This document shows positions 3,961-60,137 of a stretch of 64,000 nt of DNA, one piece after another. Positions within the stretch are counted from its first letter, which is position 1. Each line of letters opens with the position of its first letter. The position numbers and the translations under genes are program-made. The notes beneath the pieces are model-generated. The model worked only from the letters and a program-made list of their open reading frames with translations, was not told the DNA's origin and searched no databases. The DNA is from Candidatus Magasanikiibacteriota bacterium (lineage in GTDB: Bacteria; Patescibacteriota; Patescibacteriia; Magasanikbacterales; UBA922): positions 11,627 through 75,626 of the forward strand of contig CAILTG010000021.1 of NCBI GenBank assembly GCA_903837125.1. The letters are read 5' to 3'.

Positions 3961-6567
3961 TTAATTATCTTTTTGCATCACCAATCCCAATGTTTTATCA
4001 GTCTTTAACTGCCATTTAACCGAAGCTCCATTCTTTCCCAAATCCAGATCTTCATTTATACGCCAAACTGGATGCCAGCCATCAGGATAGATAATCAAAG
4101 AAGAAAAATTATCCTCTACTCCGGATTGTTTTTGCACCAACAAACTATAAGACGAAGACTGCTTACTATTTATTCCCAAAAAAATTGCCAACTGATTAAC
4201 CGACACTGTATTGTCTTTTTGCTTAATTACTTTAAAAGGTAATCTATAAGTAAAATAAACTTCTGATGTTTGCCCCGGCGGAGTGATAACCCAATTACCA
4301 AAAGCCGTTTTAGCAAATTCTTGAGTTATTCTAGTTCCAGTTTTAGCGTGAATTGCCACCTCTTTTTCTAAATTCAACAAATCAACGTCATCTTGGTAAT
4401 CTTTTTTTGGCACATAAAAAGCGTCCTCTGGAGGAAAATTAAATCCTCCAGCATCCAATAATTCTGCACCAAGTGGTACATAAATTCGTAAATAATCTAC
4501 ATTATTTACACCATAAAATAATTCCCCGGGAGTACCAGTATGATTGCGCTGGATAATTACTGTGTCAATTACCGAACCATCTTCCTGCACTACTGTTTGA
4601 TGTTCAACATTTTCTTTAATTTTAGCATCTGTTTTTTGACCATCTAAATTAGTATTTACCGCCAAAAAATAATCCTGATTATCACTATTTTTATCTAACT
4701 CACCAGTCCAACCATAAGTCCTAAATTTATTCTGCACTTCTTGATCATTAAAATAAACCTGAATTTCTTTCTGTTGCAAAGCCTCTTGTAATTCACCTAC
4801 CAAACGCACCACTTCCATTTTATCTAAATGCTTAAAATTATCCAAAAATTGCGTGGCCAAACCACCAATTACTTCCTTAGGTTTATTGGCAACTTTATCA
4901 TAATTAATTTCCACTTGATATTGAAGTTTGGCTAAAGCATTATCTGCATTTAAAGTTAAACCACTCTTTTCATCTGCCATTGGCCCCATTACTCTTAGTA
5001 GCCTCTCCAAAACAGAGGCATTAATAGCTATCACCCCGTCCACTGTGGTATTGCGGCTGTGCTGATAAAACCATTCCAATTTTTGAGCAGAAACCGCAAA
5101 ATCGGGAAACCAATTTGCATCTTGAAACTCCCAACGGCCATTAGTAAGTTGTAGTGGTAACGGAGGTTTAACATACTGATCTAACTGACCCTGTAAATCG
5201 TAACTGCCACCAGCCGGAATATTTAAATTAATTATTTTCCCCTTTATTACATCTAGAACTGCAAAACTTCCAATAAAACCACCAGTAGGACGCACTTCTG
5301 AATTATTTTGAAAAACCAAAAGATAACGTTTTAATTGATCACTACCAAAAACTGTTTGCACGGCTCCTGACAAATCTGCCATATTTTTCATGTCATTAAT
5401 AAAAGCCGCAAATAATAATCTAAAATCATTAAACGACTGCTGATATTCTACCGGAACTGTTTGAACATTTACAGCACTTAAATCTTCCAAAGCTGCTTCA
5501 TACTGCGGAATAGCACTGTGTAAATATCTGGTTAATAAATTCAAACGATCGGTTAAAACCATTTGAGTTGATTTTTGCGTTGTATCTATTCCTTGCACCA
5601 AATAAGAATTACCCAAAGCCAAATGTTGGCCAGCTATTAAAAGATGCTGTCTACTGGTAACCTGCGTACCAATTATTGGCAAAAGACCGGCCACATATTG
5701 AAGCACTGTATGTTCTTTATCCATTATTGAAGTGGCTTGATTAAAAGAATTTAAAGCTGAATTCAAATCCATTTCTGCCTGTGGAATATTTGATTGCATC
5801 GCCGCCACGGTGGAAGATTGTAAAGCCAAAAAACCACTAGTACTGGCTTCCACAATTCTGCTACTTTCATCTTTTAAACTATGATAATAAGCAATTGTGG
5901 GAAAAGGTAAACCTAATAAAATTAATAAAATCAAACTGGCGTAAACAACTTTTCTGAAATATAATTTGTTTTTAAAATCTTTTAATCTTTTAATTTCTGC
6001 TAATTTAAATAATTTTAATTTTTCCTTAAATGATTTTTTAAAATAACTAAAACGATAACTAAAATTTAATCCTGGTAACATTAATTTTGGCAAAACAAAT
6101 TTTTGTTTAGCTGATTTAGTTAATTTTTGTCTACCAAATTTTTTCTTTTGTGCTAATAAAATATTCTGCAAATCAAACTCATCATCGGCCAAGCTTAAAT
6201 CTTTAGTCTTAGTTTTTAATCCGTCATTGTGTTCCTTTACTAATTTTGCAAAATCCACCACTTTTGGTTTAAGTTTTATCTCCACCGGCGCTTCTTGATA
6301 TATTTGCACCCCTTGCCAAACATCAGCTTTTTTCTTATGGGTTAAATCTACTACATGAGGTGAATGACTATGTTTTTCTGAAAAATTGATAAGTACCGCT
6401 TTCGGAAAAACATTTTTTTTACTATTAGATAAGTTCTTTTTTGATGTTAAATTAGCAGTTTTTAAAACTTTTTGTTTAACAACACCAAAACTACACCTGG
6501 CACCATTATGCCCAGTCTTGCCACACTTTGAACAACGCCTCAATTGTATCCCTCTTTTTACAGGCAT
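3961..6567 (-). CDS. Hypothetical membrane-anchored protein with an N-terminal CxxC...H...C zinc-ribbon/knuckle motif and a large extracytoplasmic domain.
   Basis: 868-aa ORF. N terminus MPVKRGIQLRRCSKCGKTGHNGARC. Single TM helix around LILLILLGLPFPTIAYY. No known catalytic motif recognised. Confidence 0.55.
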   Translation of the reverse strand: MPVKRGIQLRRCSKCGKTGHNGARCSFGVVKQKVLKTANLTSKKNLSNSKKNVFPKAVLINFSEKHSHSPHVVDLTHKKKADVWQGVQIYQEAPVEIKLKPKVVDFAKLVKEHNDGLKTKTKDLSLADDEFDLQNILLAQKKKFGRQKLTKSAKQKFVLPKLMLPGLNFSYRFSYFKKSFKEKLKLFKLAEIKRLKDFKNKLYFRKVVYASLILLILLGLPFPTIAYYHSLKDESSRIVEASTSGFLALQSSTVAAMQSNIPQAEMDLNSALNSFNQATSIMDKEHTVLQYVAGLLPIIGTQVTSRQHLLIAGQHLALGNSYLVQGIDTTQKSTQMVLTDRLNLLTRYLHSAIPQYEAALEDLSAVNVQTVPVEYQQSFNDFRLLFAAFINDMKNMADLSGAVQTVFGSDQLKRYLLVFQNNSEVRPTGGFIGSFAVLDVIKGKIINLNIPAGGSYDLQGQLDQYVKPPLPLQLTNGRWEFQDANWFPDFAVSAQKLEWFYQHSRNTTVDGVIAINASVLERLLRVMGPMADEKSGLTLNADNALAKLQYQVEINYDKVANKPKEVIGGLATQFLDNFKHLDKMEVVRLVGELQEALQQKEIQVYFNDQEVQNKFRTYGWTGELDKNSDNQDYFLAVNTNLDGQKTDAKIKENVEHQTVVQEDGSVIDTVIIQRNHTGTPGELFYGVNNVDYLRIYVPLGAELLDAGGFNFPPEDAFYVPKKDYQDDVDLLNLEKEVAIHAKTGTRITQEFAKTAFGNWVITPPGQTSEVYFTYRLPFKVIKQKDNTVSVNQLAIFLGINSKQSSSYSLLVQKQSGVEDNFSSLIIYPDGWHPVWRINEDLDLGKNGASVKWQLKTDKTLGLVMQKDN

Positions 6568-7936: not shown

Positions 7937-9072
7937 ACTTTCTGAGTTAAATATATTTTTAGTGTTTTTTTAATAAAATCTTCTCCTGAATACCTTTTCA
8001 ATTCTTCTTTCGCCTTTTCTCGCAACTCCAGTCTAATATTTTCATCAGTCAAACCAGTATGTATAACTTCCGCCATTTGTTGATAATTTTCCGGATCAAA
8101 ATATAATGCCCCTTCACCTAATACTTCTGGTAAACAACTGGCATCAGATGATACCACTGGCACACCATACGTCATTGCTTCAAGCGGCGGCAAACCAAAA
8201 CCTTCATAAAGTGACGGAAAAACGTAAAGTGAAGCGTTTTGATATAGATTGGCGAGTTCTTCATCTGAAACAAAGTCAGTAAAAACTAAATTGTGATCTT
8301 TCAATCTTTCAATCTTTAAATCTTTAAATAATTTCTCATAAAAGAAATTATTCTTTCCCACCAACACTAACTGATAATCCTCACCATACTTCTCACCAAA
8401 TATTTTCCACGCCCTTAACAATCCTTCCAAATTCTTATGAGGATATGCATTACCTACATAAAGAACATACGGCTTGTTAATTTGAAATTTGAAATTTGAA
8501 ATTTGAAATTTATTTGTATCTTGATTATTGATTATTTTTGTAAACGGTGCTTGATAAATAACCACCATTTTCTCCAACGGCACTCCCAAAGTTTGATGCA
8601 CATCCTGTTTAGTAAATTCACTCGTTACAATAATCTGTTTGGCCTTTTTTACCGCATGACGTAACACTAAACGATGAACCAAATCTTTAAACCAATAAAC
8701 AAATCGTCCGTGCGTACTCGCCTCTTGGCGAGGATAATGATACATTATTAAATCATGAATGGTAACCACGAATGGTTTATTATAAAACAATGGTACATTC
8801 CAATGTGGAAAATGCATTAAATCTACTTGCTCTTTTTCAATTATCTTCTTAAATTTAAACTGCTCTTGCCAACTATACCATGATATATTTGCTTCAATAA
8901 TCTTAAAGCTGTTCGGTAATTCTGCACTCTCCAATTCTTTTGCATTTCTTACAAAAATAAAGTATTCACTCTCTTTGTCTATTTCAGCCAAACCCAAAAC
9001 CAACTCCTGAACATACCTGCCCAAGCCTGCCTGTTTTGGTCCATACATCCGCGCATCTATACCAATTTTCAT
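7933..9072 (-). CDS. Glycosyltransferase family 4 (GT-B, 'group 1')
   Basis: C-terminal EGFGLPPLEAMTYGVPVVSSDASCLPEVLGEG motif. Overlaps the upstream gene by 4 nt. Contains an in-frame (AATTTGA)x4.7 repeat encoding KFQISNFKFQI. Confidence 0.85.
   Translation of the reverse strand: MKIGIDARMYGPKQAGLGRYVQELVLGLAEIDKESEYFIFVRNAKELESAELPNSFKIIEANISWYSWQEQFKFKKIIEKEQVDLMHFPHWNVPLFYNKPFVVTIHDLIMYHYPRQEASTHGRFVYWFKDLVHRLVLRHAVKKAKQIIVTSEFTKQDVHQTLGVPLEKMVVIYQAPFTKIINNQDTNKFQISNFKFQINKPYVLYVGNAYPHKNLEGLLRAWKIFGEKYGEDYQLVLVGKNNFFYEKLFKDLKIERLKDHNLVFTDFVSDEELANLYQNASLYVFPSLYEGFGLPPLEAMTYGVPVVSSDASCLPEVLGEGALYFDPENYQQMAEVIHTGLTDENIRLELREKAKEELKRYSGEDFIKKTLKIYLTQKV
8469..8503. repeat. Heptanucleotide tandem repeat (AATTTGA)x4 plus a degenerate unit, in frame inside the GT4 CDS
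   Basis: aatttga aatttga aatttga aatttga aatttat, read directly. Near-identical arrays occur at 27652-27688 (inside argS) and 60077-60104 (intergenic). Confidence 0.9.
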
Positions 9073-14002: not shown

Positions 14003-14130
14003 AAAAAATACTTAAAAAGCATAAAGGCTTAAAATGCTTGCAAAGCTAATACTTACAGTTTAGCGAAAAAAACAACTTTAGTCAACTTTATTAATTCCTC
14101 TAAATTTAGCTAAATTATACACTTATACCC

Positions 14131-17726: not shown

Positions 17727-17809
17727 GTGGGCGAGAAGGGACTCGAACCCTTATGCCTTTCGGCGTTACCACCTCAAGGTAGTGCGTCTACCAATTTCGC
17801 CACTCGCCC
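17727..17809 (-). tRNA. tRNA-Leu (anticodon GAG) with a long variable arm
   Basis: Reverse complement GGGCGAGTGGCGAAATTGGTAGACGCACTACCTTGAGGTGGTAACGCCGAAAGGCATAAGGGTTCGAGTCCCTTCTCGCCCA. Acceptor and T arms pair. Anticodon loop TTGAGGT with G37. Leu-type D arm. Confidence 0.85.
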
Positions 17810-17832: not shown

Positions 17833-18594
17833 TTAGAACTTTCGTTCTTTCCCTACCACCATCTCAATCTTTTTCTTAGCTAAGTGAATTTTTATTTTAG
17901 TTTCTTTTGACTCTTTACCATCGGCCTCTACTACAAATGGAGTACGACTAAAAACAATCATTTCTTCAAAGGGAAAAATACTCGGATCTTCATATTTCTG
18001 TCGACCAAAAATACCTCTCTTTACCACTGGCCTTAAAAAAGCCTCTAATTTTCCATCTTGTGGATGTACCACTACATCTTCTTTATCTCCCTTCCAAATA
18101 TAAGGCTGCAGATTACAAATTACCAATTCCATTTTTTTACTTTGCGATGACACTTTAAATTTTTCATCATATTCTACGGCAATGTCACTTGGTGGTATAT
18201 GCAATTGAGAGACAAAATAACGATTATTAAACCAGCCCACGTCCAATTTAACTTTACGTCGGCGTGACAAAACATTACAAGCCTCTTCACCAATAGGTAT
18301 ACCCAGTACTTCCGCAATAGTATTATCTCCACCCACAGGCAAAAAACCAAAAGTTATCCCACAGGTAGCAGCACTAGAAAGTACCTGTCCAAAAGTAGCA
18401 TCATTACCCACAATCACAATAGTAGAAGCGCCTTTTTTTATTTCATCTTCTATTACTGCTTTAGAGTTGGTAAAATTTTGCAACCGAACTATCTTACCAG
18501 CAATGCTAAAATCCGTCAACCTAGTCTCAATAGCCCTGAGTGTTGAATCAAATTTCTTATTCTTTAAAAAATTGTCGTAAAGATAAACGTACAT
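17833..18594 (-). CDS. Lipid kinase / diacylglycerol kinase catalytic-domain protein (YegS/BmrU/DAGK_cat family)
   Basis: VIVGNDATFGQV...FGFLPVGGDNTIAEVLGIP matches DAGK_cat motifs. The ORF track begins at a TTG (18600); the ATG is at 18594. Confidence 0.55.
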   Translation of the reverse strand: MYVYLYDNFLKNKKFDSTLRAIETRLTDFSIAGKIVRLQNFTNSKAVIEDEIKKGASTIVIVGNDATFGQVLSSAATCGITFGFLPVGGDNTIAEVLGIPIGEEACNVLSRRRKVKLDVGWFNNRYFVSQLHIPPSDIAVEYDEKFKVSSQSKKMELVICNLQPYIWKGDKEDVVVHPQDGKLEAFLRPVVKRGIFGRQKYEDPSIFPFEEMIVFSRTPFVVEADGKESKETKIKIHLAKKKIEMVVGKERKF

Positions 18595-18602
18595 AAACAA
18601 AC

Positions 18603-18682
18603 AAAAAAGATCAGAAGATCAGAAGATCGAAAGATCATTAAAATGCTTGATCTTATGATCTTCTGATCTTTTGATCTTTACA
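18603..18682. repeat. Palindromic array of 8-mer repeats (AAGATCAG x4, then mirror-image TGATCTTN x4) carrying 8 GATC sites; probable large terminator hairpin after the bactofilin gene.
   Basis: aagatcagaagatcagaagatcgaaagatcattaaaatgcttgatcttatgatcttctgatcttttgatcttt. The loop contains the TTAAAATGCTT motif. On the minus strand the stem is followed by a T-rich tract. Confidence 0.8.
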
Positions 18683-18685
18683 ATA

Positions 18686-19153
18686 CTATTGGAGCACTGC
18701 AACATTCTCTTCTTCTCCTTTAACTTTTAACCTACCAAATCCACCTAATTTTTCTTTCTTTTCTGGTTCAATACCTTTCATCAACACCTTGCCATAAATT
18801 AATGCTCCTGGTTCTACTGCCAAAACCTTACAATCAATATCTCCAGCTACTCGAGCGGTAGAAGTTAGTTCCAACTTATCACTAATCTTAACATCACCGC
18901 GCACTTCTCCAGAAATAACCGCTTCTCCGGCTCTAACGTTAGCAAAAATTTTAGCCCCTTTTTCCACAGTCAATCTTTTACTGGTTTTCACGCTTCCTGA
19001 AACTGTCCCCTTCACCACTATATTACCCTCTGATGAAAAATCCCCCTCCACACTTACTGAAGGGCCAACCACTGTCTCCACCTCGTCTTGCGCCTGGTGT
19101 AACTTGTCTTCGTTGTTATTTAAAGAAATGCTGGGCGATGGTTTTTGAAACAT
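18686..19153 (-). CDS. Bactofilin (polymer-forming cytoskeletal protein, DUF583)
   Basis: Repetitive beta-helical G.V.G.V pattern: VSVEGDFSSEGNIVVKGTVSGSVKTSKRLTVEKGAKIFANVRAGEAVISGEVRGDVKISDKLELTSTARVAGDIDCKVLAV. Confidence 0.75.
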   Translation of the reverse strand: MFQKPSPSISLNNNEDKLHQAQDEVETVVGPSVSVEGDFSSEGNIVVKGTVSGSVKTSKRLTVEKGAKIFANVRAGEAVISGEVRGDVKISDKLELTSTARVAGDIDCKVLAVEPGALIYGKVLMKGIEPEKKEKLGGFGRLKVKGEEENVAVLQ

Positions 19154-19216
19154 AAAATTTAATTAATTTAATACTCAATTATTTTACAACTTTTTTAAAA
19201 AAAAAGCAAATTTAAA

Positions 19217-20896
19217 TTATTTAACAACGGCTACCTCTTTATTTTCTACTTTTTCCATAGACAACAAAACCTCTGCTGACGGTTTAAGAGGAATCCAAAA
19301 CCCAAATTCACTCCCCTTTCCTAAACCAGGACTTTTGGCCCAAACCTTACCGCCATGAGTCTCAATAAATTTTTTACAAACAAACAATCCCAATCCAGTA
19401 CCCGTAACATTTATATCTTTAACATTTTCCCCGCGATAAAATTTAGTAAAAAAACTTACTTCATCTTTTTTATCAAAACCCAAACCTTTATCATTTACCT
19501 TTACTTCAACACCTTCCTCACCTTGTTCAACAGTAATCTTAATTTCACCTTTTTCTGTATATTTAATGGCATTATCCACAAAATTAAATATCACATGTCG
19601 TACTTTTTCGTCATCCATGTTAATTGATAATTTTTTAAATTCTGGCTTCCATTTTAAACTCAAACCTTTATCCTTGGCCCTAGCACTTAATTCTGTAACC
19701 ACACCTTTAATTAATTCCACCATATCATAATCATGAAAAACAAACTTGGTCCGGCCTTGTTCAATTCGACTAACATCCAAAAATTCATCAACCAATTTAA
19801 TCAATCTTTCGTTACTCATATCCATATTATCCAAAGTACCCAACAACTCTTTGCTGGCCTTGCCATAAGCGCCATCTTTAATTAATTCAATATAACCTTT
19901 CAAAATAGATAACGGCGTACGTAATTGATGTGAAGCAATTGATAAAAATTCGGTTTTTTGTTTATCCAAGTCTTGAAGACGAATATTGACGCTTTGAAGT
20001 TCTTTGTAAAGAATTTCTAATTGTTCACGTTGTTTAACCTCCATTATTACACTTTTAATTAACCAAATACCTACACTTAAAACTAAAAGAAAAAGACTGC
20101 TTCTAAATATTACAGTAACTAAATCATTAGACATGACAACTTCAAGTAAAATGGCAACAGATAAAATAAAAGCCAATAATTCAGTAGAAATTATTTTAAT
20201 GTTTAAGAAATTATGTTTAATAATGGAGTATCCAGTAAAAAACACAAAAGGAATAACAAATATTGCACCAAAAGGCACAAAGGACGAATTGTTTAAAAAA
20301 GCTGGAAAAATAAAATTAAATATGATAATCAAAACAAAGGTCATTAGTGTACCCCACAAAATTAAACGCAATGAGCCTTTTTCGGTATTTTTTGAATACC
20401 AAATTTTCTTTAACAAAGAAAAAAGAGCAAACATTACCAAACCAACACTAAAAATTCCGAAAATTCCTATCAAAGGTCCGTTTTCTATATTAACGATACG
20501 CCCTTCAGCACTCACTTTGGAGACATGGCTGAAGACCATTGGAGTAAGAGTTAACAAAGAGACTAAAGCAGTACATGGCAAAAGGCCAAATTTATACCAT
20601 TTTTTATACAAAAATGTAGTCTCTGGAAAAACATAAAATAATTGAAAAATAAAAAAAGCCTGCCAAACAGCTGAAAACATTACTAGTCGCACTATCCAAA
20701 ATGCCCAAAACAAAGAGATACTCTGACCATTTAAATAGTTGACTATCCCCCAGAATGAAGTTACTAATGAAAAAAATAAAAATGTATAACTAGTTGAACT
20801 TTTACGATTACTAAAATAAATAACACAAGCCAATATTATTATTGATGAAATTACCAAACCGACAATAAATAAATTAAGATTTATAAGTGTATTCAT
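19217..20896 (-). CDS. Membrane sensor histidine kinase (multi-TM N-terminal sensor domain)
   Basis: About 7 predicted TM helices. H-box SIASHQLRTPLSIL. HATPase NAIKYT ... GTGLGLFVCKKFIETHGGKVW. Confidence 0.85.
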   Translation of the reverse strand: MNTLINLNLFIVGLVISSIIILACVIYFSNRKSSTSYTFLFFSLVTSFWGIVNYLNGQSISLFWAFWIVRLVMFSAVWQAFFIFQLFYVFPETTFLYKKWYKFGLLPCTALVSLLTLTPMVFSHVSKVSAEGRIVNIENGPLIGIFGIFSVGLVMFALFSLLKKIWYSKNTEKGSLRLILWGTLMTFVLIIIFNFIFPAFLNNSSFVPFGAIFVIPFVFFTGYSIIKHNFLNIKIISTELLAFILSVAILLEVVMSNDLVTVIFRSSLFLLVLSVGIWLIKSVIMEVKQREQLEILYKELQSVNIRLQDLDKQKTEFLSIASHQLRTPLSILKGYIELIKDGAYGKASKELLGTLDNMDMSNERLIKLVDEFLDVSRIEQGRTKFVFHDYDMVELIKGVVTELSARAKDKGLSLKWKPEFKKLSINMDDEKVRHVIFNFVDNAIKYTEKGEIKITVEQGEEGVEVKVNDKGLGFDKKDEVSFFTKFYRGENVKDINVTGTGLGLFVCKKFIETHGGKVWAKSPGLGKGSEFGFWIPLKPSAEVLLSMEKVENKEVAVVK

Positions 20897-27337: not shown

Positions 27338-27372
27338 TCGTTAATTTATTATTAGTGCGTATTAGTGCGTAA
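27338..27372. repeat. Short direct repeats ATTAGTGCGT x2 plus ATTAGTGG, intergenic
   Basis: attattagtgcgtattagtgcgtaaattagtgg. The same ATTAGTG unit recurs inside the rnpB insertion (14538-14570). Confidence 0.8.
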
Positions 27373-27381
27373 ATTAGTGGT

Positions 27382-29070
27382 CTACATTTCTTCAACTGTT
27401 TCTATACCCAACAAATCTAACCCTTTTTCCATAGTTTCTTTAACCTTTTTTATTAATTGAAAACGAAAATTAAGAACAGTTTCCTCCGCCCCCAAAACTG
27501 GACAGGTTTGATAAAAATTATTAAAAGCTTGCGCTAAATCAAACAAATATCTAGCAATCTGTGAAGGGTCCTCGGAGTCTGTGGCTATTTTAATTGTCTC
27601 TTCAAACTTTAATAATTCTAACAAAAGTTTCTTTTCTACCGGCTCAACTGAATTTGAAATTTGAAATTTGAAATTTGAAATTTTTGATTTTTTCAATATG
27701 CTGTTGATGCGAGCTACAATATAAAGCAAATAAGGCCCACTACTACCCGTTAAAGAAATAGCTTCATTTACATCAAACACAATGTCATTTTCAGTGCCAG
27801 TTTTTAAAATAAAATATTTAACCGCGGCCACAGCTATTTTAGCAATTACTTTATCCTTATCTTTTATTTTACGAGCCAACATTACTTCGGCAATCTTTTT
27901 TTCAGCTTCGTCAAGCAGCCACTCAGCCAAAACTACATTTCCCGTACGCGAACTCATTTTACCTTCTTTTAAACTCACCCAACCATAAACCAAATGTTCC
28001 TCCCTACCTTTGCTTTCAGGCAGAGTGAATTCCAAGGCTTTAAAAATAACTTTAAAATATTCAGTCTGTTCTTTGGCCACGACATGTAAAATTCTAGCTG
28101 GATTATATTCTTTAAATTGCATTCGAGCCAAGGCCTGGTCTTTGGCTTCATAAGTTGGCAAGCCTTTGCTGTTGATAAACACTCGGTCGTGCAGACCATA
28201 TTTACTTCCTTCAAAAATGACCGCTCCTTCGCTTTTCTTAAAAATTCCACTCTTTATACCTTCTATAACAATTTTTTTACCTAATTCAAAAGTTTCTGAT
28301 TCAAAATACAAACGATCAAACTTTTTAATGCCTACTCTTTTATAAATATAATCAAAATAATCCAAACTCCATTTTCTGGTTTTTTTATACAACCCAACCA
28401 AAGATTTATCTTTACTATAAATCTTGGCATTCAAAGCTTCAATTTCTTTTTTTACCTGCTCGCTACTCTCAAAAGCTTTACCCCCATTAGCATACACCAC
28501 CCCCAAAAATTTTGCTCGTTCACTGGTGGTTTTTAATTTTGAAATTTCTGTCTGATAATTTGGAACCTGTAAAATTCCCCACAAACACTTGGCAATATGC
28601 ATACCCACATCTCCCTGATAATTTGCACGCACTACCCTATGACCTTGATTTTCAAACAATCTCACCATGCTCTCGCCAGTAGTCATGGTGCGTAAATGTC
28701 CAATATGCACCGGCTTGTGAGTATTAGGATGAGCAAACTCCACCATGATCTTTTCCTTTTTTTTGATTATTTTTTGTTTTTTTTCTGATAAAACAATTTT
28801 TGCTAATTCTTGTGCGTTCAAATAAAAATTTGCATACGGCCCGATTGCTTCAATTTTTTCTATCAATCCACCAGTTTCCAAGTTTTTTAATTTCTCAACA
28901 ATTTCTCTGGCACAATCCAGCGGACTTTTCTTCCATTCTTTTGCTAAACCAAAACAGGCAAATGCCAAATCACCCATTTCTGGATTTGGTGGAATCGTAA
29001 AATTTACCAGACCAGTAACTCCTGCTTTTTTTAATAATCTTTCTATTTCAATTTTTATTTGTTCCAACAT
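27382..29070 (-). CDS. argS: Arginyl-tRNA synthetase
   Basis: Class I HIGH motif AHPNTHKPVHIGHLR and a C-terminal DALR anticodon-binding domain. Contains the in-frame (AATTTGA)x4+ repeat at 27652-27688, encoding KISNFKFQISN in the linker before the DALR domain. Confidence 0.9.
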   Translation of the reverse strand: MLEQIKIEIERLLKKAGVTGLVNFTIPPNPEMGDLAFACFGLAKEWKKSPLDCAREIVEKLKNLETGGLIEKIEAIGPYANFYLNAQELAKIVLSEKKQKIIKKKEKIMVEFAHPNTHKPVHIGHLRTMTTGESMVRLFENQGHRVVRANYQGDVGMHIAKCLWGILQVPNYQTEISKLKTTSERAKFLGVVYANGGKAFESSEQVKKEIEALNAKIYSKDKSLVGLYKKTRKWSLDYFDYIYKRVGIKKFDRLYFESETFELGKKIVIEGIKSGIFKKSEGAVIFEGSKYGLHDRVFINSKGLPTYEAKDQALARMQFKEYNPARILHVVAKEQTEYFKVIFKALEFTLPESKGREEHLVYGWVSLKEGKMSSRTGNVVLAEWLLDEAEKKIAEVMLARKIKDKDKVIAKIAVAAVKYFILKTGTENDIVFDVNEAISLTGSSGPYLLYIVARINSILKKSKISNFKFQISNSVEPVEKKLLLELLKFEETIKIATDSEDPSQIARYLFDLAQAFNNFYQTCPVLGAEETVLNFRFQLIKKVKETMEKGLDLLGIETVEEM

Positions 29071-41414: not shown

Positions 41415-41586
41415 AATATTAAAGGCTTAAAAGGCCTGAAAAGCTTAAAATGCTTAATGGCCAAAACTAAATAAGTTAGTAAAGTATAACAAGTAATAAC
41501 TAATTAATCAAGATACAAAACCGCCCCATAATTTGGAACGGTTTTTTGATCTTCTAATATTTCAATCTCAGTCTTAGTCTTAATTT

Positions 41587-46387: not shown

Positions 46388-49300
46388 TTAGCCAACTAAT
46401 AAATTTATATGCTGTAGTTCTAAAGGCAAACCGCCAGCATTTATGACACTACCGCTAGCATTTCCTTCTGCGGAAATATTATTTATTGTTGCAAACATTT
46501 CTGGTACTTGTGCTTCAGATAAAATATCTGCCCGCAGTTCAACAATTACTCTTTGATCTTTATTTAAGACATAATTTAGATTATCTATTACTACATTACT
46601 ACCTGAAAGAGTTATTTGTGAACCAATAGGTTGTCCATCAATAAATAAATTTAAGCCAGAAATATTTTCAAATCCACTAATATTTAAACTTAAATTATTT
46701 ATTTTTACATCCTCAACTTTTGGTTCTAACTCAAATCTTCCTAAAACAATACCAATAGAACCCGTGGCCACACTTGAAATCTCTAAAGGTTGGCCAAGAT
46801 AGACATCTAAAGTCCCCAAATTAGTTGGCACTGTTAAACTAAGATGCTGCAATTCCAATGGCAAACCGCCAGCATTTATGACACTACCACTAGAATTACC
46901 TTCTGCAGAAATATTATTTACAGTCACAAACATTCCTGGTACCTGTGCTTCTGGTAAGATATCTGCCCGCAGTTCAACAATTACTCTTTGATCTTTATTT
47001 AAGACATAATTTAGATTATCTATTACTAGGCTACTCCCTGATAGAAATACTTGTGAACCAATAGGTTGTCCATCAATAAATAAATTTAAGCCAGAAATAT
47101 TTTCAAATCCAGTAATATTTAAACTTAAATTATTTATTTTAATATCTTCAACTTTTGCCTCAAGTTCAAATCTTCCTAATACAACAGCGTTAGAACCAGC
47201 AGCCGTACTTGAAACCGTTAAAGGTTGACCAAGGTAAATATCTAAAGTGCCACTACTGCTCACTGGCGCTAAGGCATTATATTCCGCTGTAATCTCGGCA
47301 TCAGTTAAAACTCGCTTATAAAATTTAATTTCATCCATAGAACCAGAGAAGAAGTAATTATTATTATAACTTCCCACCAGAAGTGGAGAATTATCATTCT
47401 TTACCGCACCGGTTTGTGGCTGTTCACCAACTTTTACACCATTGGCATAAACGCGAATCATACTACCATCATAAGTAAGGACAATGTGATTCCATTGGGA
47501 CGTTTTAATTACGTTAGGTGTGTCAAAAACCACGCGAACATCAGACGCGTTGGTGATGCCGGTACGTAAACTGCCGTCATTGGAAATAGTTAATTCATAG
47601 TTAAGCTCTTTGGTAGCAACTACAGCATATTGATTGGAGAAAGATTCCGGCTTGATCCAAGCTTCCAAGGTTAAGGCTTGACCTGGCTCAAGATATTCAG
47701 AATCATTGGCAGTAATTAAATCATTTGTGCCGTCAAATTGCAGAGCAGTACCAGAAATGCCAAGAACATTCGCAATAGGACATTGATCTCCCGAACATCC
47801 TAGAGGAAATAAAGAAGCTGTATCAAAAAACTTGGTTGAATTAGCCGGCTCATTTAATTTATACTCAAAACTATTAATATCAATTGGAACTGGCTTAGAA
47901 TTATTATATTCTGTAGCAATTTCTTCATCTGTCAAAACACGTTTATAAAATTTAATTTCATCTATTGTGCCAAAGAATGGATAATTGCTATTGTAATTAC
48001 CAACTAATAGAGGCGTATTATCATTTTTTATAGCACCAGTCTGCACTTCCTCACCAACTTTTACGCCATTGACATAAGCCCGGACCATACTGCCATCATA
48101 AGTAAGCACAATGTGATTCCATTGGGACAACGTAACTACATTAGGAGTATCAAAAACTACCCGAGTATCAGCCGCATTGACAATACCTGTACGCAAACTA
48201 CCATCATTAGAAATAGTCAATTCATAATTAAGTCCCTTGCTAGCAACCACAGCATAATGATTAGAACTTGCATAAGGTTTGACCCAAGTTTCCAAAGTTA
48301 GGGCTTGACCCGGTTCAAGATATTCAGAATCATTGGCAGAAATCAGATCATTTGTGCCGTCAAATTGTAATGCAGTACCAGAAATACCAGGAACATTCGC
48401 AGTAGGGCATTGATCTCCCAAACAAGCTAAAGGAAAAATTGAGGCCTGATCAAAAAATTGATTTGATCCAACCGGTTCATTTAATTTATAGATCAATTCA
48501 TTATCAACAACTGGAACCGGTTTCAAATTATTATATTCCGCCATAATCTCAGCACCAGTTAAGGTTTGCTTATAAAATTTAATTTCATCAATTGTGCCAA
48601 AGAATGGATACCTATCATCACCTAAACTACCAACTAACAATGGGGTACTATCATTCTTTATGGCACCGGTCTGTGGCTGTTCACCTACTTTTACACCATT
48701 GACATAAGCGCGAATCATACTACCATCATAAGTAAGTGCTAGATGATTCCATTGGTACATTTTTACTACATTATATGCATCAACAGCCGCACGTATGTTG
48801 GAGGCATTGGTGATACCCGCACGCAAACTACCATCATTAGTAATAGATATTTCATAATTAAACCCTTTAGTAATGACCACGGAATAATAATTGGAACTGG
48901 GCTGAGGTTTAATCCAGGTTTCCAAAGTAATTTGGTCTGTTGCTGAAATAATTTCGTTGTTATTAATATAGGTAAAATTATTTACTCCATTGAATTGTAA
49001 AGCTTTCCCAGAAATACCTATTACACCTGCCTCTGGACAATAACTAGCGCCACAACCCATCACTAAACCAGAAACATTATCAACAAAACTAGTGCTACCA
49101 GATTGCTCTTCGAAACTATAAGCTAAATTAATAACACTTGGAGGAACAACTTTTGAAACATTTACCGGTCCCAACCAATCTCCACTACTAGTTAAATTTC
49201 CATCATTATCAACTACTACGACAAGATAATAATATATTCCAGAAGTAACATTGTCCGTATAAGAAACCATAGCCATATTTGTGGAAGTGTTGATTGGTGA

Positions 49301-50524
49301 AAGTCCGGAAATAAGAGTGGTGGTATTAGTACTACGATAAATTTCAAATCTATTAAAATCATTCTGATTGTCTACATAAGTATTCCAATTCAAAACTACA
49401 GTTTCCGGAGCGCTAGAACTGGTTGAAAGACCAGTTACTGGATTTGGAGGAATTAACTTTGGATCTATTTGCCCGGTAGTAGAAGTAAAATCTATGGATT
49501 TATTGAACAAAGGAGTAACACCAGTATTTAAGACTGAAGTATTATCAACATTTGAATTTGTTTTTATAACTAAATTATTATTTGCTGAATAAGCAAAAAT
49601 CCCCTGCTCTGTTTCATAAGAAATATTCTCTAAAGCAGAAAATTTTTCTTTGGTAAATTTATTTTTTAACAATTGACCGGAATAATTATACAAAGATACA
49701 CTGCCATCAGTAAGTTGAACCACTACTTCCAGTCCAGCATTATTTTTATCAATATCAGCCACAATTAAATTAGCACCACTGTCGCGTAAAATAATAGGAA
49801 ATCCGGTGGCAATAGTTCCAGAAGCAGAATAAGCATATAATTTATCATTACTTAAATACCACAATTCGCCATTACCATCATCAACTACTCTACTTAAAAC
49901 TGGACCAGAAACATTAATAGTCTTAACAAGATTCCAACCAGATGATCTTTGATAAACTTGTATTTCAGATTCTCCATCAACCGCATAATAAAACTTATTT
50001 TTAGCGTTGTCTGTTGAAATGTGATTTATTAAACTAGTACCAACTACAATTGGTGTAGCGGTCCAAATTCCAGAGTTTAGAGTTAACTCTTGTACATCCC
50101 CAGCAGCGCTACTATAAAGAACAGTATATTTTTGTAAATTATAATTATACAAGGAAACAATATCAAAACCCAAACCATAAGCATATAACATGACATTTGA
50201 AATTTCTGTTCCTGTACTACTATACAAATGTAAATAATATTCTCCGCTAGTTTTTCTTTCTACCACGCAAATTTCATTCCCAACTACTCCATCAAAATTA
50301 CCTACAATAGGATTGCCTTCAAAAACACCCTCTGCCCAAACAGGAAAACCAGATAACAATTTTCCTGAAGCAGAATAAACAGCCAAACCACCATCATTCG
50401 TAATCAAAATTCTTTCCGCGCCAGGACTAGCGGGATTTATTTCTCCTACACTAGCAAAAACCAAACCCGGCAGAACCAAAAACCCTAACACAGCGATTAG
50501 CGTCAACTTTAATTTTGTGAACAT
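46388..50524 (-). CDS. Giant secreted surface protein: signal peptide, beta-propeller-like N-terminal region, three tandem LamG (concanavalin/laminin-G, PF13385-like) domains, two C-terminal ~147-aa tandem repeats.
   Basis: Signal MFTKLKLTLIAVLGFLVLPGLVFA. Three copies of ...ALQFDGTNDLI.ANDSEYLEPGQALTLE.W.KP....N.YAVVA.K..NYELTISNDGSLR.GI.NA...RVVFDTPNV...QWNHIVLTYDGSM.R.YVNGVKVGE...GTIDEIKFYKRVLTD.EI. C-terminal repeat GTLD.YLGQPL..SS.A.GS...VLGRFELE.KVED.KINNLSLNI.GFENISGLNLFIDGQPIGSQ... x2. Confidence 0.75.
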   Translation of the reverse strand: MFTKLKLTLIAVLGFLVLPGLVFASVGEINPASPGAERILITNDGGLAVYSASGKLLSGFPVWAEGVFEGNPIVGNFDGVVGNEICVVERKTSGEYYLHLYSSTGTEISNVMLYAYGLGFDIVSLYNYNLQKYTVLYSSAAGDVQELTLNSGIWTATPIVVGTSLINHISTDNAKNKFYYAVDGESEIQVYQRSSGWNLVKTINVSGPVLSRVVDDGNGELWYLSNDKLYAYSASGTIATGFPIILRDSGANLIVADIDKNNAGLEVVVQLTDGSVSLYNYSGQLLKNKFTKEKFSALENISYETEQGIFAYSANNNLVIKTNSNVDNTSVLNTGVTPLFNKSIDFTSTTGQIDPKLIPPNPVTGLSTSSSAPETVVLNWNTYVDNQNDFNRFEIYRSTNTTTLISGLSPINTSTNMAMVSYTDNVTSGIYYYLVVVVDNDGNLTSSGDWLGPVNVSKVVPPSVINLAYSFEEQSGSTSFVDNVSGLVMGCGASYCPEAGVIGISGKALQFNGVNNFTYINNNEIISATDQITLETWIKPQPSSNYYSVVITKGFNYEISITNDGSLRAGITNASNIRAAVDAYNVVKMYQWNHLALTYDGSMIRAYVNGVKVGEQPQTGAIKNDSTPLLVGSLGDDRYPFFGTIDEIKFYKQTLTGAEIMAEYNNLKPVPVVDNELIYKLNEPVGSNQFFDQASIFPLACLGDQCPTANVPGISGTALQFDGTNDLISANDSEYLEPGQALTLETWVKPYASSNHYAVVASKGLNYELTISNDGSLRTGIVNAADTRVVFDTPNVVTLSQWNHIVLTYDGSMVRAYVNGVKVGEEVQTGAIKNDNTPLLVGNYNSNYPFFGTIDEIKFYKRVLTDEEIATEYNNSKPVPIDINSFEYKLNEPANSTKFFDTASLFPLGCSGDQCPIANVLGISGTALQFDGTNDLITANDSEYLEPGQALTLEAWIKPESFSNQYAVVATKELNYELTISNDGSLRTGITNASDVRVVFDTPNVIKTSQWNHIVLTYDGSMIRVYANGVKVGEQPQTGAVKNDNSPLLVGSYNNNYFFSGSMDEIKFYKRVLTDAEITAEYNALAPVSSSGTLDIYLGQPLTVSSTAAGSNAVVLGRFELEAKVEDIKINNLSLNITGFENISGLNLFIDGQPIGSQVFLSGSSLVIDNLNYVLNKDQRVIVELRADILPEAQVPGMFVTVNNISAEGNSSGSVINAGGLPLELQHLSLTVPTNLGTLDVYLGQPLEISSVATGSIGIVLGRFELEPKVEDVKINNLSLNISGFENISGLNLFIDGQPIGSQITLSGSNVVIDNLNYVLNKDQRVIVELRADILSEAQVPEMFATINNISAEGNASGSVINAGGLPLELQHINLLVG
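46391..47272. repeat. Two tandem ~441-bp DNA repeats encoding the C-terminal repeat domain of the LamG protein
   Basis: Near-identical segments beginning ...aaaggcaaaccgccagcatttatgacactacc... at about 46420 and ...aatggcaaaccgccagcatttatgacactacc... at about 46862. Confidence 0.75.
47275..49150. repeat. Three tandem ~625-bp DNA repeats encoding the LamG domains
   Basis: Repeated blocks ...ggtgtgtcaaaaaccacgcgaacatcagacgcgttggtgatgcc... / ...ggagtatcaaaaactacccgagtatcagccgcattgacaatacc... / ...ttatatgcatcaacagccgcacgtatgttggaggcattggtgatacc... Confidence 0.65.
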
Positions 50525-51568: not shown

Positions 51569-54500
51569 TTATTTATCATCAAAATTAACTAAATTACTAT
51601 TATATGTATTATACGACGTAATTCCTTTAACAATACTAACAATTGGCACGAGTGGAATATGAACAGCCGACTCAAACCCACTAAGACCTAGATGCCAATA
51701 AGGTGAACCAGCTGCACTAGTTGGATGAAAACCTATATGAGCTCTGAGTCCACCACTTACTTTTTCAAGAATACTTAAGTCAGGTTTAGACCCGGCATTT
51801 ACCTTTAAAAGAGTATTTTCTGTTTCAACCAATTTTATTTGTTTAGCAGGTAGCAATTTGGACACAACACTGGTAGCTTTAAAACCAGCGAAAACGTCAA
51901 CAACATCATAACCAACATTTAAACTAGTATTTAACACAGAACCTTTTTCAGTTGTAGCATTAATAGCTTCATGAGCAGGATTGAAGGTGTAGTCCACGGC
52001 TTCTTCTTTCTCGTCAAAAATACTATTCCACATATTAACAACACCACCAGACAGTTGTGTGGTGCCTGCAACAATATTATTAGCACCCAACACACCCATA
52101 CCCACGCCACCGGCCACGGCCAGAGGTGCACCTAGCCCGCCGGTCGCGACGGTACCACCTGTAGCTAAAGTAACACCACCAGCTACTTCCACAGCTCCAA
52201 ACACAGTATTCAACCCACCCAATACAGTTTGTTTTGTTCCTTCCCACAACAAATCCCAATTTATCTCTCCACTCGGATCCGTATACTTCAATGGATTATT
52301 CTTTACATAAATATATTCATTGTAACCCAACACTCCATCGCCACGATGAATAATTGGATCTTTTGACAAGAATCTGCCAAGCAAAGGATTGTAATAGCGG
52401 GCGTTGTAATAATATAATTCTGATTCAGCATCAAATTCCTGACCAGTGTATAAATAATTACTGGTATTACTATCTTCTCCTAGTTCGCTGGCAATACTGC
52501 CAAATGGGTCATAGCTATACTGGTGCACAATTGCCCCAGTGTTGTTTGTAACCAGCACAGTGGAACCAAGAATATCTTGATTAAGATATTGCAAATTATT
52601 ATTTTGATCTATTTCTGCAATTGAGCCTAGGCCATTTACCATTGTTTTTAGAATTGTTCCGGTGGCACTTACTTCATTCAAAACAGTTAAGCCATTATTA
52701 AGATAATAAGTATTATCGCCATTTACAGCTTTCTTCACACGGTTGCCAAAATCATCATAAACAAATGCCGAAACATTATTTGTTTGATTTGGAATTTGAT
52801 AAGTAATTGAATTTAATTTATTTTCCGAATTCCAATTATAATTTACAGTTTTGGTATTTTTACCAAGCAAACTATAATTTTCTTGGATAATATTGCCATT
52901 ATTATCAGTGGCATAAGCAACATTCAATTTATTATTAAGAGACAATCCAAAAATTTCGTTGGTGTTGGCATTATAATTATAAGTAGTGGTGCCAAAGGCA
53001 GTATGGTAATTTGTTCTGTTACCCCAAGCATCATAATTATAAGCTAAATTTTGACCGGTTGCTAAATGATTATAATCAGCATTAGTAACTTGGCTTATTG
53101 AATCATAAGCATAATTAACAGTGGAAGAAGTTAATTGTCCATCAGTCAATTTAAGTTCCACCATTTGCGTTCTGTTTGATTCCTTATCATAAGTATAATC
53201 CTGTCTAAATAAAATATTAACGCCTAATTTTGTTTCTACACTCTTTGGCCTTTGCGATTCATCATAAGTATAAGTGGTAACTGTGCCATTGCCATAAGTA
53301 ACAGTTAATGGTTTGCCAAATGAAGTGTAAGTATAAACTGCCAAATTATTGGAAGCATAAACTACATTATCAAGTAGCGCGCGATTATTATAATTATAAT
53401 TTATTTTCTTATTCGCGGCATCGGTAATAGATTTTAATCCCGAGTCAACAAAATATTCTCTACCAACATTAAAAGTACCAGCCAAACCAATAATTGTTTT
53501 GGCTTCATTAGTGTTTCTATTCAAAACATCATAAGTATAAGCGGTAGTGCCGGACAAGTCACTTAAACTAAGCAAATTATTCCATTGATCATAACCATAA
53601 TTTATTTCACCTTCTGGTAAAGTTTTTTTGGTTAACCTTTCCAATTTGTCATAAGTATAGGAAACAGAATTACTATTGGCATTTAACTCACTGATTTTGT
53701 TGCTATTTTCATCATAACCAAAAGTAAAGACTTTATTGCCGGGTTCAATTCGCTTGTTTACTCTGTTTAACTGATCATATTCATAACTGGTAATTTTGCC
53801 AGCAATATTTTCTGTTAGACGGTTACTGTTGGCATCGTAAGTATAATTAATCACTGTATTTTGTGAATTAGTTTCGCTCGTCAAACGGTTTAATTTATCA
53901 TAAGCATAATTAGTCGTAAATCCACGTTTGTCTTTCAAGCTGATTTTATTATTCAACAAATCATAACCATAATCTTCATAATTGTTTAAAGAATCTATTA
54001 CTTTAATTAAGCGATTCAAAGAATCATACTGAAATTGAGTAATCTTGCTCTGTGAATCGGTGACGGTTAATTTATTTCCAGCCTTATCATAAGTATAGTG
54101 AGTATTATTATTTGCCGGATCAAATTCATCTGTCAAACGATTAAAAGCGTCATAAGTATAAGTCCAAATTCTGCTCATTTGATCTGTCTTACTTAAAACG
54201 TTACCAACTCCATCATACGTTTGTGAACTAAAATTACCTAAAGCATCAGTAATTTTTGTTTGTCTGTTCAAATTATCATACAAATAATTTATTACATGAG
54301 TATTACTAGTGCCATTGGAATTTTGACGATCAATAGTTTTAACTAAATTACCATTGGCATCATAAAAATACAGAGTATATTTATCATTGGCATCAATCTT
54401 TTTAATTACGCGGTTAGCGCCATCATAAACATAAGAAACTGAAGTTCCCAAGCTATTGCGATTGCTGACACTCAAAAATCCTCGAGGGTTTAATTCCCCG

Positions 54501-59470: not shown

Positions 59471-59478
59471 ATATAAAA

Positions 59479-59500
59479 AAACCGCACAATAGTGCGGTAA
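59479..59500 (-). terminator. Strong hairpin (terminator/attenuator-like) abutting the RHS start codon
   Basis: accgcac aata gtgcggt, followed on the minus strand by TTTTTTTATATAT and then the RHS ATG. Confidence 0.4.
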
Positions 59501-59595
59501 ATTAGTAATAAATAATAATTGAAAAAATTGGCTTATTAAACGATTTAATGAATTGTATTTCTGAAAAAATACCCATACAAGTTTAACCTAATAAA

Positions 59596-59681: not shown

Positions 59682-60068
59682 TTAATCCACCGGGATCACA
59701 TATTTCCTCAGCACAAACTTATCCGGCATTCTTTCCACATATATACTAATTTGTTCAAACATAATCGGCGTGATTCCAATATCTATATTATTCTCAAAAC
59801 AATAACTTTGGCAAGCTTTAAAAAACTTCTTCATTTTTTCTTCATCCACAGCTCGTTCGGCACTGCCCTCGCCATAACTTCTGGTTTTTACTTCTATAAA
59901 CGATAATTTTTTTAATTTATCATAATTATCATAATGGCTGGCAATAATATCCACCTCACCTTGAGGTATAGAATAATTACGCTTAACAATTTCATAACCA
60001 GCTTTAATTAAAAAAAGTGAGGCCTGCTCCTCACCCCACTGTCCCAATTTTTGCTTAGCGGTCTGCAT
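59682..60068 (-). CDS. yraN: YraN-family (UPF0102) endonuclease-like protein
   Basis: LGQWGEEQASLFLIKAGYEIVKRNYS...GEVDIIASH.......FIEVKTR matches the YraN family. Confidence 0.65.
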   Translation of the reverse strand: MQTAKQKLGQWGEEQASLFLIKAGYEIVKRNYSIPQGEVDIIASHYDNYDKLKKLSFIEVKTRSYGEGSAERAVDEEKMKKFFKACQSYCFENNIDIGITPIMFEQISIYVERMPDKFVLRKYVIPVD

Positions 60069-60076
60069 AAATTACA

Positions 60077-60104
60077 AATTTGAAATTTTCAATTTGAAAT
60101 TTAA
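60077..60104. repeat. Intergenic copy of the AATTTGA heptamer repeat in a partly inverted arrangement
   Basis: aaatttgaaattttcaatttgaaattta, immediately upstream of the yraN start. Confidence 0.8.
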
Positions 60105-60137
60105 AAACAATTTATAATTTTAAATTAAAAATTATTA

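Follow-up and report, generated by a model that had tools for sequence, protein, structure and literature searches.

An eight-fold octamer-repeat hairpin between the bactofilin and lipid kinase genes of a Candidatus Magasanikbacteria genome, possibly an intercistronic RNA stem-loop

What does an array of eight 8-base units, arranged so that one half can fold back onto the other, do between two genes of an uncultured bacterium? The question is raised by positions 18603-18682 of a 64-kb stretch of DNA (64,000 nt, referred to below as the window) from Candidatus Magasanikbacteria, a lineage of the candidate phyla radiation (CPR). At this site eight copies of an 8-base unit make up a hairpin of 74 bases, which fills the 91-nt spacer that leads from a bactofilin gene to a gene for a DAGK-like lipid kinase, both on the minus strand. 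An earlier description made from the letters alone (the sequence-only reading) had offered a terminator, a cluster of GATC target sites or an operator as explanations. What is seen is an array of 8-nt units that is complementary to itself, a palindromic octamer microsatellite, and the explanation preferred here, tentatively and at somewhat less than even confidence, is that it acts as an intercistronic RNA stem-loop, either a leaky terminator or a 3' stabiliser.

On the plus strand, four AAGATCNN units (left arm, AAAGATCAGAAGATCAGAAGATCGAAAGATCA, 18606-18637) are followed by a 10-nt loop (TTAAAATGCT, 18638-18647) and by four inverted units (right arm, TGATCTTATGATCTTCTGATCTTTTGATCTTT, 18648-18679). 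In the sense orientation of the two genes, the 5' arm (18648..18679, minus strand) reads AAAGATCA / AAAGATCA / GAAGATCA / TAAGATCA, with GATC at 18649, 18657, 18665 and 18673, and the 3' arm (18606..18637, minus strand) reads UGAUCUUU CGAUCUUC UGAUCUUC UGAUCUUU, with GATC at 18609, 18617, 18625 and 18633. The 10-nt sense loop (18638..18647, minus strand) is AGCAUUUUAA and forms the 11-mer AAGCATTTTAA together with a flanking A. A T/U-rich tail, UUUGUUUGUUU (18595..18605, minus strand), connects the stem to the start codon of DAGK; counting in the UUU of the stem foot, the sense tail is U6GU3GU3. An inverted-repeat search returned arms of 32 nt each, 91% complementary and 10 nt apart, as the longest inverted repeat of the window. 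The arms pair at 29 of 32 positions, the mismatches falling on the variable NN positions of the units. Tandem Repeats Finder (TRF) called period-8 arrays of 3.9 and 4.1 copies. The arms are AT-rich (10/32 G+C in the left arm, plus strand) and the stem foot is AU-rich. With one mismatch allowed, AAGATCNNAAGATC was matched 7 times against 0.32 expected, a count reached in none of 100 shuffles. The minus-strand RNA (116 nt) folded at -44.4 kcal/mol (z = -8.3 against shuffles) and the plus-strand RNA at -43.9 kcal/mol (z = -9.5); single-stranded DNA (plus strand) also formed one long hairpin (-25.5 kcal/mol, z = -9.3). The sequence-only reading was therefore accurate in its description of the site, namely eight 8-mer units with eight GATC sites in mirrored arms, a stem of about 30 bp, and a position between a bactofilin gene and a lipid kinase gene, both neighbours being as guessed.

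The element was compared with published families. At the locus, the only Rfam matches were to generic long-hairpin models and stayed below threshold (35.9 bits at best, the gathering score being 100), and a scan of 15 related loci at the gathering score gave no match. Literature searches by repeat string and by keyword returned no description of octamer-repeat hairpins of this kind; a paper on triplex repeats (PMC4666352) had no bearing on the element.

The gene order histidine kinase-bactofilin-DAGK is kept in relatives, and their bactofilin-DAGK spacers were aligned with that of the window. A homologous AAGATCNN hairpin is present in the window and in L001, L128, L130/L131 and L272, of which L001, L128 and L130/L131 have DAGK identities to the window of 85%, 77% and 78%, L272 having a partial DAGK. 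The spacer has no hairpin and measures only 24-35 nt in L002-L008 (DAGK 79%), L132/L133 (77%) and L129 (73%). It is occupied in five lineages, the window included, and empty in three, and on a neighbour-joining tree the pattern can be explained by one gain and one loss.

All five orthologous copies fold into long hairpins. The sequence AAGATC, six of the eight positions of each unit, is invariant among them; the two NN positions differ from copy to copy, and between the loops no relation is seen in sequence or in length (7-13 nt). The 5' arm (sense) is the better conserved, its four GATC cores being almost invariant, and of 39 GATC positions in the five orthologs 34 are intact. Behind the 3' arm (sense) a T-rich tail is present in 5/5 copies, as a run of T5-T7 after the last GATC in the window, L001, L128 and L130 and as T4-G-T4 in L272. 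Between the window and L001, and likewise between the window and L272, the arms are identical at 58/64 positions (91%), against 33/75 (44%) at 4-fold degenerate sites of the adjacent gene; the arms are therefore either constrained or actively maintained. Conserved inverted-repeat arms with variable spacers, especially near terminators, were also found in a survey of 118,019 genomes (PMC13155455).

Technical origins were considered and discarded. An assembly artefact was ruled out by the orthologous hairpin, which is identical in the independent samples L130 (JGI) and L131 (Logan). Some copies contain AGATCGGAAGA, and a chimera with an Illumina adapter was rejected, since complete genomes and independent samples contain the elements. 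The element is real and has persisted through evolution.

How the arms may stay matched is suggested by a second genomic setting. The same hairpin type was found in frame within the hypervariable linker of Elp3 in two Magasanikbacteria. One copy (L324:2966-3030, -32.5 kcal/mol) has AAGATC/GATCTT units, and the other (L336:10540-10612, -13.4 kcal/mol) has AAGATT/AATCTT units and no GATC, so that C-to-T in one arm is matched by G-to-A in the other arm in all units. This is the decisive evidence on the role of GATC: complementarity and octamer period persist, and the GATC tetranucleotide does not. Arms of 8-nt period made from other units were also found: GGAAGACG in L247, with the same AACAGG...CCTGT ends, CACCAAGG in L219, TTAAATTG in L307 and TTATCAAA in L320. 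In L320, two octamer-repeat hairpins lie next to each other (1378-1439 and 1458-1514) with different stems (TTATCAAA-type and AAGATC-type) and similar, TTAGGG-containing loops. The Elp3 linker after the SFxAxN motif ranges from 0 to 40 residues among Magasanikbacteria (alignment columns ~180-225), and several homologs carry low-complexity inserts there, two of them hairpin-encoded; the linker could be a hot spot in which palindromic insertions are tolerated.

Units were presumably gained and lost by replication slippage, and the arms kept complementary through hairpin-templated correction, a form of concerted evolution. Such correction would make the element long-lived while its loop and NN positions turn over.

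The position of the hairpin suggests where it might act. The upstream gene encodes a bactofilin of 155 aa (18686..19153, minus strand; stop codon TAG at 18688-18686) and the downstream gene a DAGK_cat / YegS-like lipid kinase of 253 aa (17833..18594, minus strand; ATG at 18594-18592). The ATG at 18594 was confirmed by a 253-aa database protein, 100% identical, and homologs of the kinase carry the name Candidatus Magasanikbacteria. The stem starts 6 nt past the bactofilin TAG and ends 11 nt ahead of the DAGK ATG; in minus-strand order it is followed by UUUGUUUGUUU and then by AUG. In the same order, a HisKA_7TM histidine kinase gene (19217-20896, minus strand) precedes bactofilin and a tRNA (17728-17809) follows DAGK_cat. 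The G+C content of the window is 34.5%, and nearly all of its genes lie on the minus strand.

In the spacer between the histidine kinase and bactofilin genes, only a T-run/A-run and an extended -10 motif of the TGnTAnnAT type are kept among relatives. In the window the candidate extended -10 element is TGTAAAAT (19181..19188, minus strand), upstream of bactofilin, and the motif could be aligned in four relatives, with the conserved T-run/A-run ahead of it. No promoter-like element was seen in or after the array, and the 11 nt between the stem and the DAGK ATG leave no room for one. This arrangement suggests that transcription of bactofilin, hairpin and DAGK starts at the extended -10 motif. 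Bactofilin and DAGK are co-oriented and the one conserved promoter-like motif stands upstream of bactofilin, so the element is probably part of one mRNA.

Other roles for the spacer were tried and rejected. A promoter in the loop was discarded, because TTTAAT does not have the A that is conserved at position 2 of the -10 hexamer, and because conservation is lacking in the loops. Coding potential was discarded likewise: two frames are stopped, the third is open but enters DAGK out of frame, and neither the loops nor the NN positions are conserved. A replication origin, with GATCTTTTTTGTT read as a DNA unwinding element, was set aside, there being no dnaA nearby and minus-strand genes on both sides, although no dedicated test of it was made.

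As an intercistronic stem-loop, the element would be transcribed as part of the bactofilin-DAGK message, its stem of about 30 bp (-38 to -44 kcal/mol) being followed by U6GU3GU3 and then by the DAGK AUG. Singly or together, three effects are likely: it could cause partial (leaky) intrinsic termination, it could shield the 3' end of the bactofilin message from exonucleases, and its long duplex could be cut by a double-strand-specific RNase. By any of these routes the structural protein would become more abundant than the downstream enzyme, and DAGK would still be made from read-through transcripts. The hairpin directly follows the stop codon on the sense strand, as is expected of a terminator, and a U-tract comes right after the stem, UUUGUUUGUUU being continuous with the UUU of the stem foot. 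NusA is encoded in the genome, and canonical terminators, short GC-rich hairpins with a T-run, are present in it. The anatomy thus fits the hairpin with a minus-strand U-tract that the sequence-only reading had proposed, and this is still the likeliest mode of action; against it, a consensus terminator scan made no call at the 32-bp, AU-rich stem. As a separate observation, a small canonical hairpin with U7 (CCGCACTATTGTGCGGTTTTTTT, 59471-59510) ends 4 nt before the ATG of a 2633-aa RHS-repeat gene, another start codon bordered by a terminator-like structure.

Several results weigh against the stem-loop explanation. In place of a short GC-rich stem (about 5-14 bp) and a loop of 3-8 nt, the hairpin has 32 bp, an AU-rich foot and a 10-nt loop, and the consensus scan passed it over. 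The tail is weak evidence, because T-rich leaders precede most ATGs of this genome, and a T-run is absent from several CPR copies at other loci (L258, L307). Three related lineages do without the hairpin, with spacers of only 24-35 nt. No covariation was found at the bactofilin-DAGK locus, the AAGATC core being invariant, as would likewise be expected if the sequence itself were recognised. The copies in coding sequence (Elp3 linker of L324 and L336) and in a divergent spacer (L221) cannot be terminators, which means that termination does not define the class as a whole. For the window copy the antisense fold (-43.9 kcal/mol) is better than the sense fold (-37.7 kcal/mol), and G.U counts are equal across 35 co-oriented loci (78 sense, 75 antisense). 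At the same 35 loci the sense strand was the stabler in 22 and the antisense strand in 13 (Wilcoxon P = 0.04); the strand comparison neither shows nor excludes selection on RNA structure. Termination, processing and stabilisation by the hairpin are all inferred from its sequence and setting, and the terminator-like reading is to be taken as plausible but unproven.

Whether the element is peculiar to this locus was addressed by wider searches. The sequence-only reading had suggested a look for similar 8-mer arrays elsewhere, and the same hairpin type does occur at other CPR loci. In these the hairpin follows a stop codon and precedes the promoter or start of the next gene (L270, L316, L258, L307, L032); in the Patescibacteria genome L032 it separates an MraY-like gene from the next gene. 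The hairpin of L316 extends over the C-terminal end of an open reading frame (ORF), and that of L221 lies in a divergent spacer. Some genes on related CPR contigs (L270, L316) appear to have no leader, TTGACA-N17-TATTCT or TGTTATAAT standing immediately ahead of their ATG.

A genome scan for three tandem AAGATCNN units gave at least 119 loci. Among the matches listed, many are in Pseudomonas, with (GATCTTTT)n inside a recurring palindrome, and other hairpins are in Polyangiaceae, Myxococcales, Vicinamibacterales and Bacteroidota. In fluorescent Pseudomonas (L011-L127, for example L012:2262-2419), (AAAAGATC)n / (GATCTTTT)n arrays of variable length lie within inverted pairs made from GTAGGAGCTGCCGAAGGCTGCGATC, and the arrays sit sometimes on one arm and sometimes on both. 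The Pseudomonas palindrome with (GATCTTTT)n is presumably of the repetitive extragenic palindrome (REP) type or of the type of the hairpins that REPs form in pairs (REPIN).

A hairpin-specific pattern gave 117 metagenome loci, of which about 10 are on low-GC, CPR-like contigs (several loci), about 8 are of the Pseudomonas type and the majority belong to a conserved high-GC family. The latter lies on contigs of 62-75% G+C and has the consensus AACAG[GA]AAGATCAGAAGATCAGAAGG - variable loop - CCTTCTGATCTTCTGATCTT[CT]CTGTT, its start often coinciding with a stop codon (examples among L219-L335 are L334:2943-2990 and L273:8012-8064). Positions that the search pattern had left free are clearly conserved in it: NN is AG, the flanks are ACAG/CTGT and the inner end is GAAGG. 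Elements like it occur in named genomes of Vicinamibacterales and of Polyangiaceae or Myxococcales. With a simple ORF caller, its neighbouring genes were convergent at 19 loci, co-oriented at 22 and divergent at 4, an enrichment of convergent pairs (P = 6e-4 against an expectation of 20%). An all-against-all BLAST of 469 ORFs flanking the high-GC loci within 2.5 kb gave no recurrent neighbour protein, the family has no match in Rfam, and extra copies in the high-GC flanks numbered 1 per 421 kb. The family surfaced through a search for AAGATC, and its excess over other cores is not established.

AAGAT(C/T) palindromes lie in intergenic spacers and in protein linkers of Magasanikbacteria and other Patescibacteria. 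That AAGAT(C/T)-octamer palindromes make up a distinct, undescribed class of self-maintaining palindromic microsatellites, whose core is recognised by a conserved sequence-specific factor, is regarded as a doubtful proposition. On this view they would last over long evolutionary times in such spacers and linkers, and the high-GC family at gene 3' ends would be a strikingly similar counterpart. If it were true, a core shared across phyla and conserved where neutral sites are near saturation would mean that a sequence-specific factor acts on the hairpin, for which nucleases, proteins that bind DNA or RNA, and enzymes of repair or recombination would be candidates; the alternative would be mere slippage. 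The cross-phylum family, if more than an effect of the search, would likewise point to an unrecognised factor that recognises hairpins.

Of the competing explanations for the window element, the one that fares best takes it for a selfish or neutral palindromic repeat without host function, a by-product of slippage with templating between the arms or of some insertion process, and sustained by molecular drive. It would settle wherever it is tolerated, in spacers and in protein linkers, and any effect on the operon would be incidental. This is a real possibility, to which less credence is given than to the RNA stem-loop. It agrees with the mixed presence and absence of the hairpin among orthologous spacers of similar divergence, with its occurrence at unrelated loci (the Elp3 linker in frame, the C-terminal end of the L316 ORF, the L221 divergent spacer) and with the concerted shift of every unit of both arms from GATC to GATT/AATC. 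The lack of a strand preference in G.U pairs and of an associated protein family near the high-GC loci fits it too, as do the other short coding arrays of the same genome (33-nt heptamers in the genes for arginyl-tRNA synthetase, ArgRS, and a GT4 glycosyltransferase; AAGATT in two coding sequences). It is opposed by the arm consensus, with 91% identity between lineages that agree at 44% of their 4-fold sites: concerted evolution alone should drift at the neutral rate, so that this identity calls for selection or for a sequence-biased process. The copy number is, moreover, very low, unlike that of an active REP or transposable element of the miniature inverted-repeat kind (MITE), with no further hairpin in the rest of the window and none in ~50 kb of hairpin-less relatives, besides the low rate in the high-GC flanks given above; nor is a target-site duplication visible at the flanks.

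In a further explanation, the element works as DNA, as an iteron array of eight AAGATC boxes in 8-bp register, four direct and four inverted, bound by a sequence-specific protein; it could serve DAGK as an operator or roadblock, or else form a nucleoprotein or segregation site. An 8-bp register is used by ribbon-helix-helix (RHH) operators such as the met-box arrays of MetJ and the ParG/parH site of TP228. The invariance of six of eight unit positions in five orthologs, with spacer positions and loop left free, is what such an array would display, and the far better conservation of the arms than of neutral sites and the absence of an RNA strand bias point the same way. The setting does not: the neighbours are a histidine kinase, bactofilin and DAGK, with no adjacent DNA-binding gene, and the only response regulator of the window consists of a receiver domain only. 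The operator suggested by the sequence-only reading is unsupported on these grounds and by the missing promoter-like site in or after the array. The hairpin type also occurs inside coding sequences, its core differs (GATT) in the orthologous Elp3 copy, the high-GC family is mostly at convergent 3' ends, where operators are unexpected, and no protein family recurs near its loci. The iteron array is therefore judged unlikely. A sequence-specific binding factor may still be involved in some form, given how strongly the AAGATC core is conserved among orthologs.

Delivery as a mobile miniature element (of the REP/REPIN, MITE or Rickettsia palindromic element type) by a transposase or by a RAYT-like enzyme, that is, one related to the REP-associated tyrosine transposases, is considered improbable. 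Dispersal of the palindrome over many unrelated loci, polymorphism for presence and absence and in-frame coding copies, as for the Rickettsia elements, would be expected from mobility, and the Pseudomonas (GATCTTTT)n arrays are embedded in palindromes at many loci. The window copy, however, is single in 64 kb, and its flanks (TATTGT / TTTGTTTG) share no direct repeat, so that there is no target-site duplication. It has no conserved ends beyond decayed-looking units and no fixed element consensus, unit number and loop varying as in a microsatellite; the window ORFs include no transposase or RAYT (Y1 transposase) gene, and the copies have no recurrent protein family nearby.

The sequence-only reading took the GATC sites for possible methylation or restriction targets and asked for a count. 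They are spaced at exactly 8 nt within each arm, and eight in 72 nt is far above the 149 per 64,000 nt of the window (Poisson P = 1.3e-11). In the window as a whole GATC is neither over- nor under-represented, with 149 sites observed and 143.2 expected (ratio 1.04), and none of the ~45 ORFs encodes a DNA methyltransferase or a restriction enzyme. The target hypothesis is thus not supported, and the eight sites look incidental, as part of the current unit. A GATC-specific epigenetic or restriction element (Dam-type methylation, SeqA-like sequestration, a restriction target or decoy) is hardly credible, for the local density and the 34/39 intact positions that speak for it are outweighed by the unremarkable window ratio, the lack of such enzyme genes among the window ORFs, the 8-bp spacing that puts successive sites on different helix faces, the existence of GATC-free hairpins of the same type (AAGATT/AATCTT in L336, GGAAGACG in L247), and viral contigs, in which AAGATC octamer arrays (14 loci) show no general excess over three control cores (24, 21 and 26).

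Other short arrays were noted in the window. Two identical 33-nt heptamer arrays, (AAATTTC) x 4.7 in sense orientation, lie in frame in two unrelated genes (8479-8511 and 27651-27683), for a GT4 glycosyltransferase (peptide NKFQISNFKFQIN) and for arginyl-tRNA synthetase (KISNFKFQISN). The heptamer has 8 matches against 0.52 expected, and a degenerate related array lies upstream of a UPF0102 gene (60067-60142). The identical length and phase of the two coding copies suggest copy-and-paste rather than independent slippage. One-armed AAGATT octamer arrays occur in coding sequence at 5976-5989 (a DUF4012 protein) and 8295-8324 (the GT4 gene, KDLKIERLKD), the GT4 gene thereby hosting both kinds of array; AAGATYNNAAGATY has 10 matches, the hairpin included, against 0.13 expected. 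Many tandem arrays of 7-14 nt were found by TRF in spacers, just upstream of genes (for example 14005-14039, 27350-27371, 35018-60, 39702-16 and 41421-57), and those of about four copies cluster at a total length of 31-37 nt. The loop 11-mer AAGCATTTTAA recurs exactly at 14029-14039 and 41445-41455, besides 18638-18648. Both copies outside the hairpin are on the sense strand, in arrays of 9-nt period (AAGCNTTTT), 30-45 nt upstream of the Bac_transf and YidC ATGs. The 11-mer may be a promoter- or leader-associated motif; it is not shared by the loops of the orthologous hairpins.

A Shine-Dalgarno-like motif precedes 0/40 gene starts in the window; the leaders are A/T-rich, with T-rich stretches ahead of most start codons. 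The window also encodes two giant surface-type proteins, one of 1378 aa (46388-50524), which has Laminin_G_3 domains and a tandem repeat of 435 nt (46409-47248), and one of 2633 aa (51569-59470) with RHS repeats, CARDB and DUF6531.

If the RNA stem-loop explanation is right, the hairpin plausibly works in cis to free the expression of a cytoskeletal protein from that of the lipid kinase whose gene is transcribed after it. In an uncultured organism without Shine-Dalgarno-based signals, such structures would be among the few regulatory features that can be read. Long hairpins can be built and kept as tandem octamers with arms evolving in concert, and can survive in coding linkers, which makes a case for studying the origin and persistence of palindromes in reduced genomes. 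For annotation, the lesson is that a dense GATC cluster need not signal methylation biology. The locus goes beyond the routine in the concerted evolution of both arms and in the apparent cross-phylum family with the same core.

Known systems offer several comparisons. The uptake sequences of Neisseria (DNA uptake sequence, DUS) and Haemophilus (uptake signal sequence, USS) are likewise specific short words found as inverted pairs downstream of genes, and these pairs also serve as terminators (PMC1852404). Uptake sequences are spread through a genome at about one per kb, and AAGATC arrays are rare in the window, with three loci in 64 kb, one of them inverted.

The MetJ met-boxes and ParG/parH (4-bp boxes with 4-bp spacers) share with the window element the 8-bp period, a conserved core, free spacers and the mixture of direct and inverted boxes. 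The window element differs in having no cognate binder gene or promoter context, in having coding copies and in a core that differs between orthologs.

The TAACTGA heptamers of Beggiatoaceae, Cyanobacteria and Bacteroidetes are direct repeats, with 2-6 copies per set in Beggiatoa (PMC4679880). They stand just upstream of start codons in genomes or regions with few Shine-Dalgarno sites, are sporadic across phyla and lie in some cases inside ORFs (PMC4679880). The 3' arm of the window element is placed similarly, as an array that ends 11 nt before the DAGK ATG in a genome without Shine-Dalgarno motifs. The heptamers are, however, almost all direct (1 inverted set/170; PMC4679880), whereas the window element is an inverted 4+4 array of 8-nt units.

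The REP, BIME (bacterial interspersed mosaic element) and REPIN families of Proteobacteria are, like the window element, extragenic palindromes at gene 3' ends or between cistrons, and the high-GC family is enriched between convergent genes. REPs stabilise upstream mRNA. The window element is distinguished from them by its low copy number, by tandem octamers of variable number, and by the absence of a GTAG-type head and of any RAYT found. Rickettsia palindromic elements (RPE) are said, after Ogata et al. 2000, to be palindromic repeats placed in frame in protein-coding genes. The window hairpin type resembles them in lying both in spacers and in frame in a conserved enzyme (the Elp3 linker) of a reduced genome. 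An RPE is 100-150 bp long with a family consensus, whereas the octamer element measures 65-80 bp and consists of 8-nt units with arms that change in concert.

Intrinsic terminators and intercistronic stem-loops, those of REP type included, come nearest to the element in mode of action; such stem-loops set differential expression inside operons. The window element departs from a typical terminator in its 32-bp, AU-rich stem with periodic mismatches and 10-nt loop (typically a GC-rich stem of 5-14 bp and a loop of 3-8 nt), in ending 11 nt before the next ATG, and in conserving its sequence at the locus and not only its pairing. It shares with these structures a stable hairpin right after a stop codon, a sense U-rich tract and a place between a structural-protein gene and an enzyme gene, and its arms are conserved and its loop variable, as in the inverted repeats of terminators (PMC13155455).

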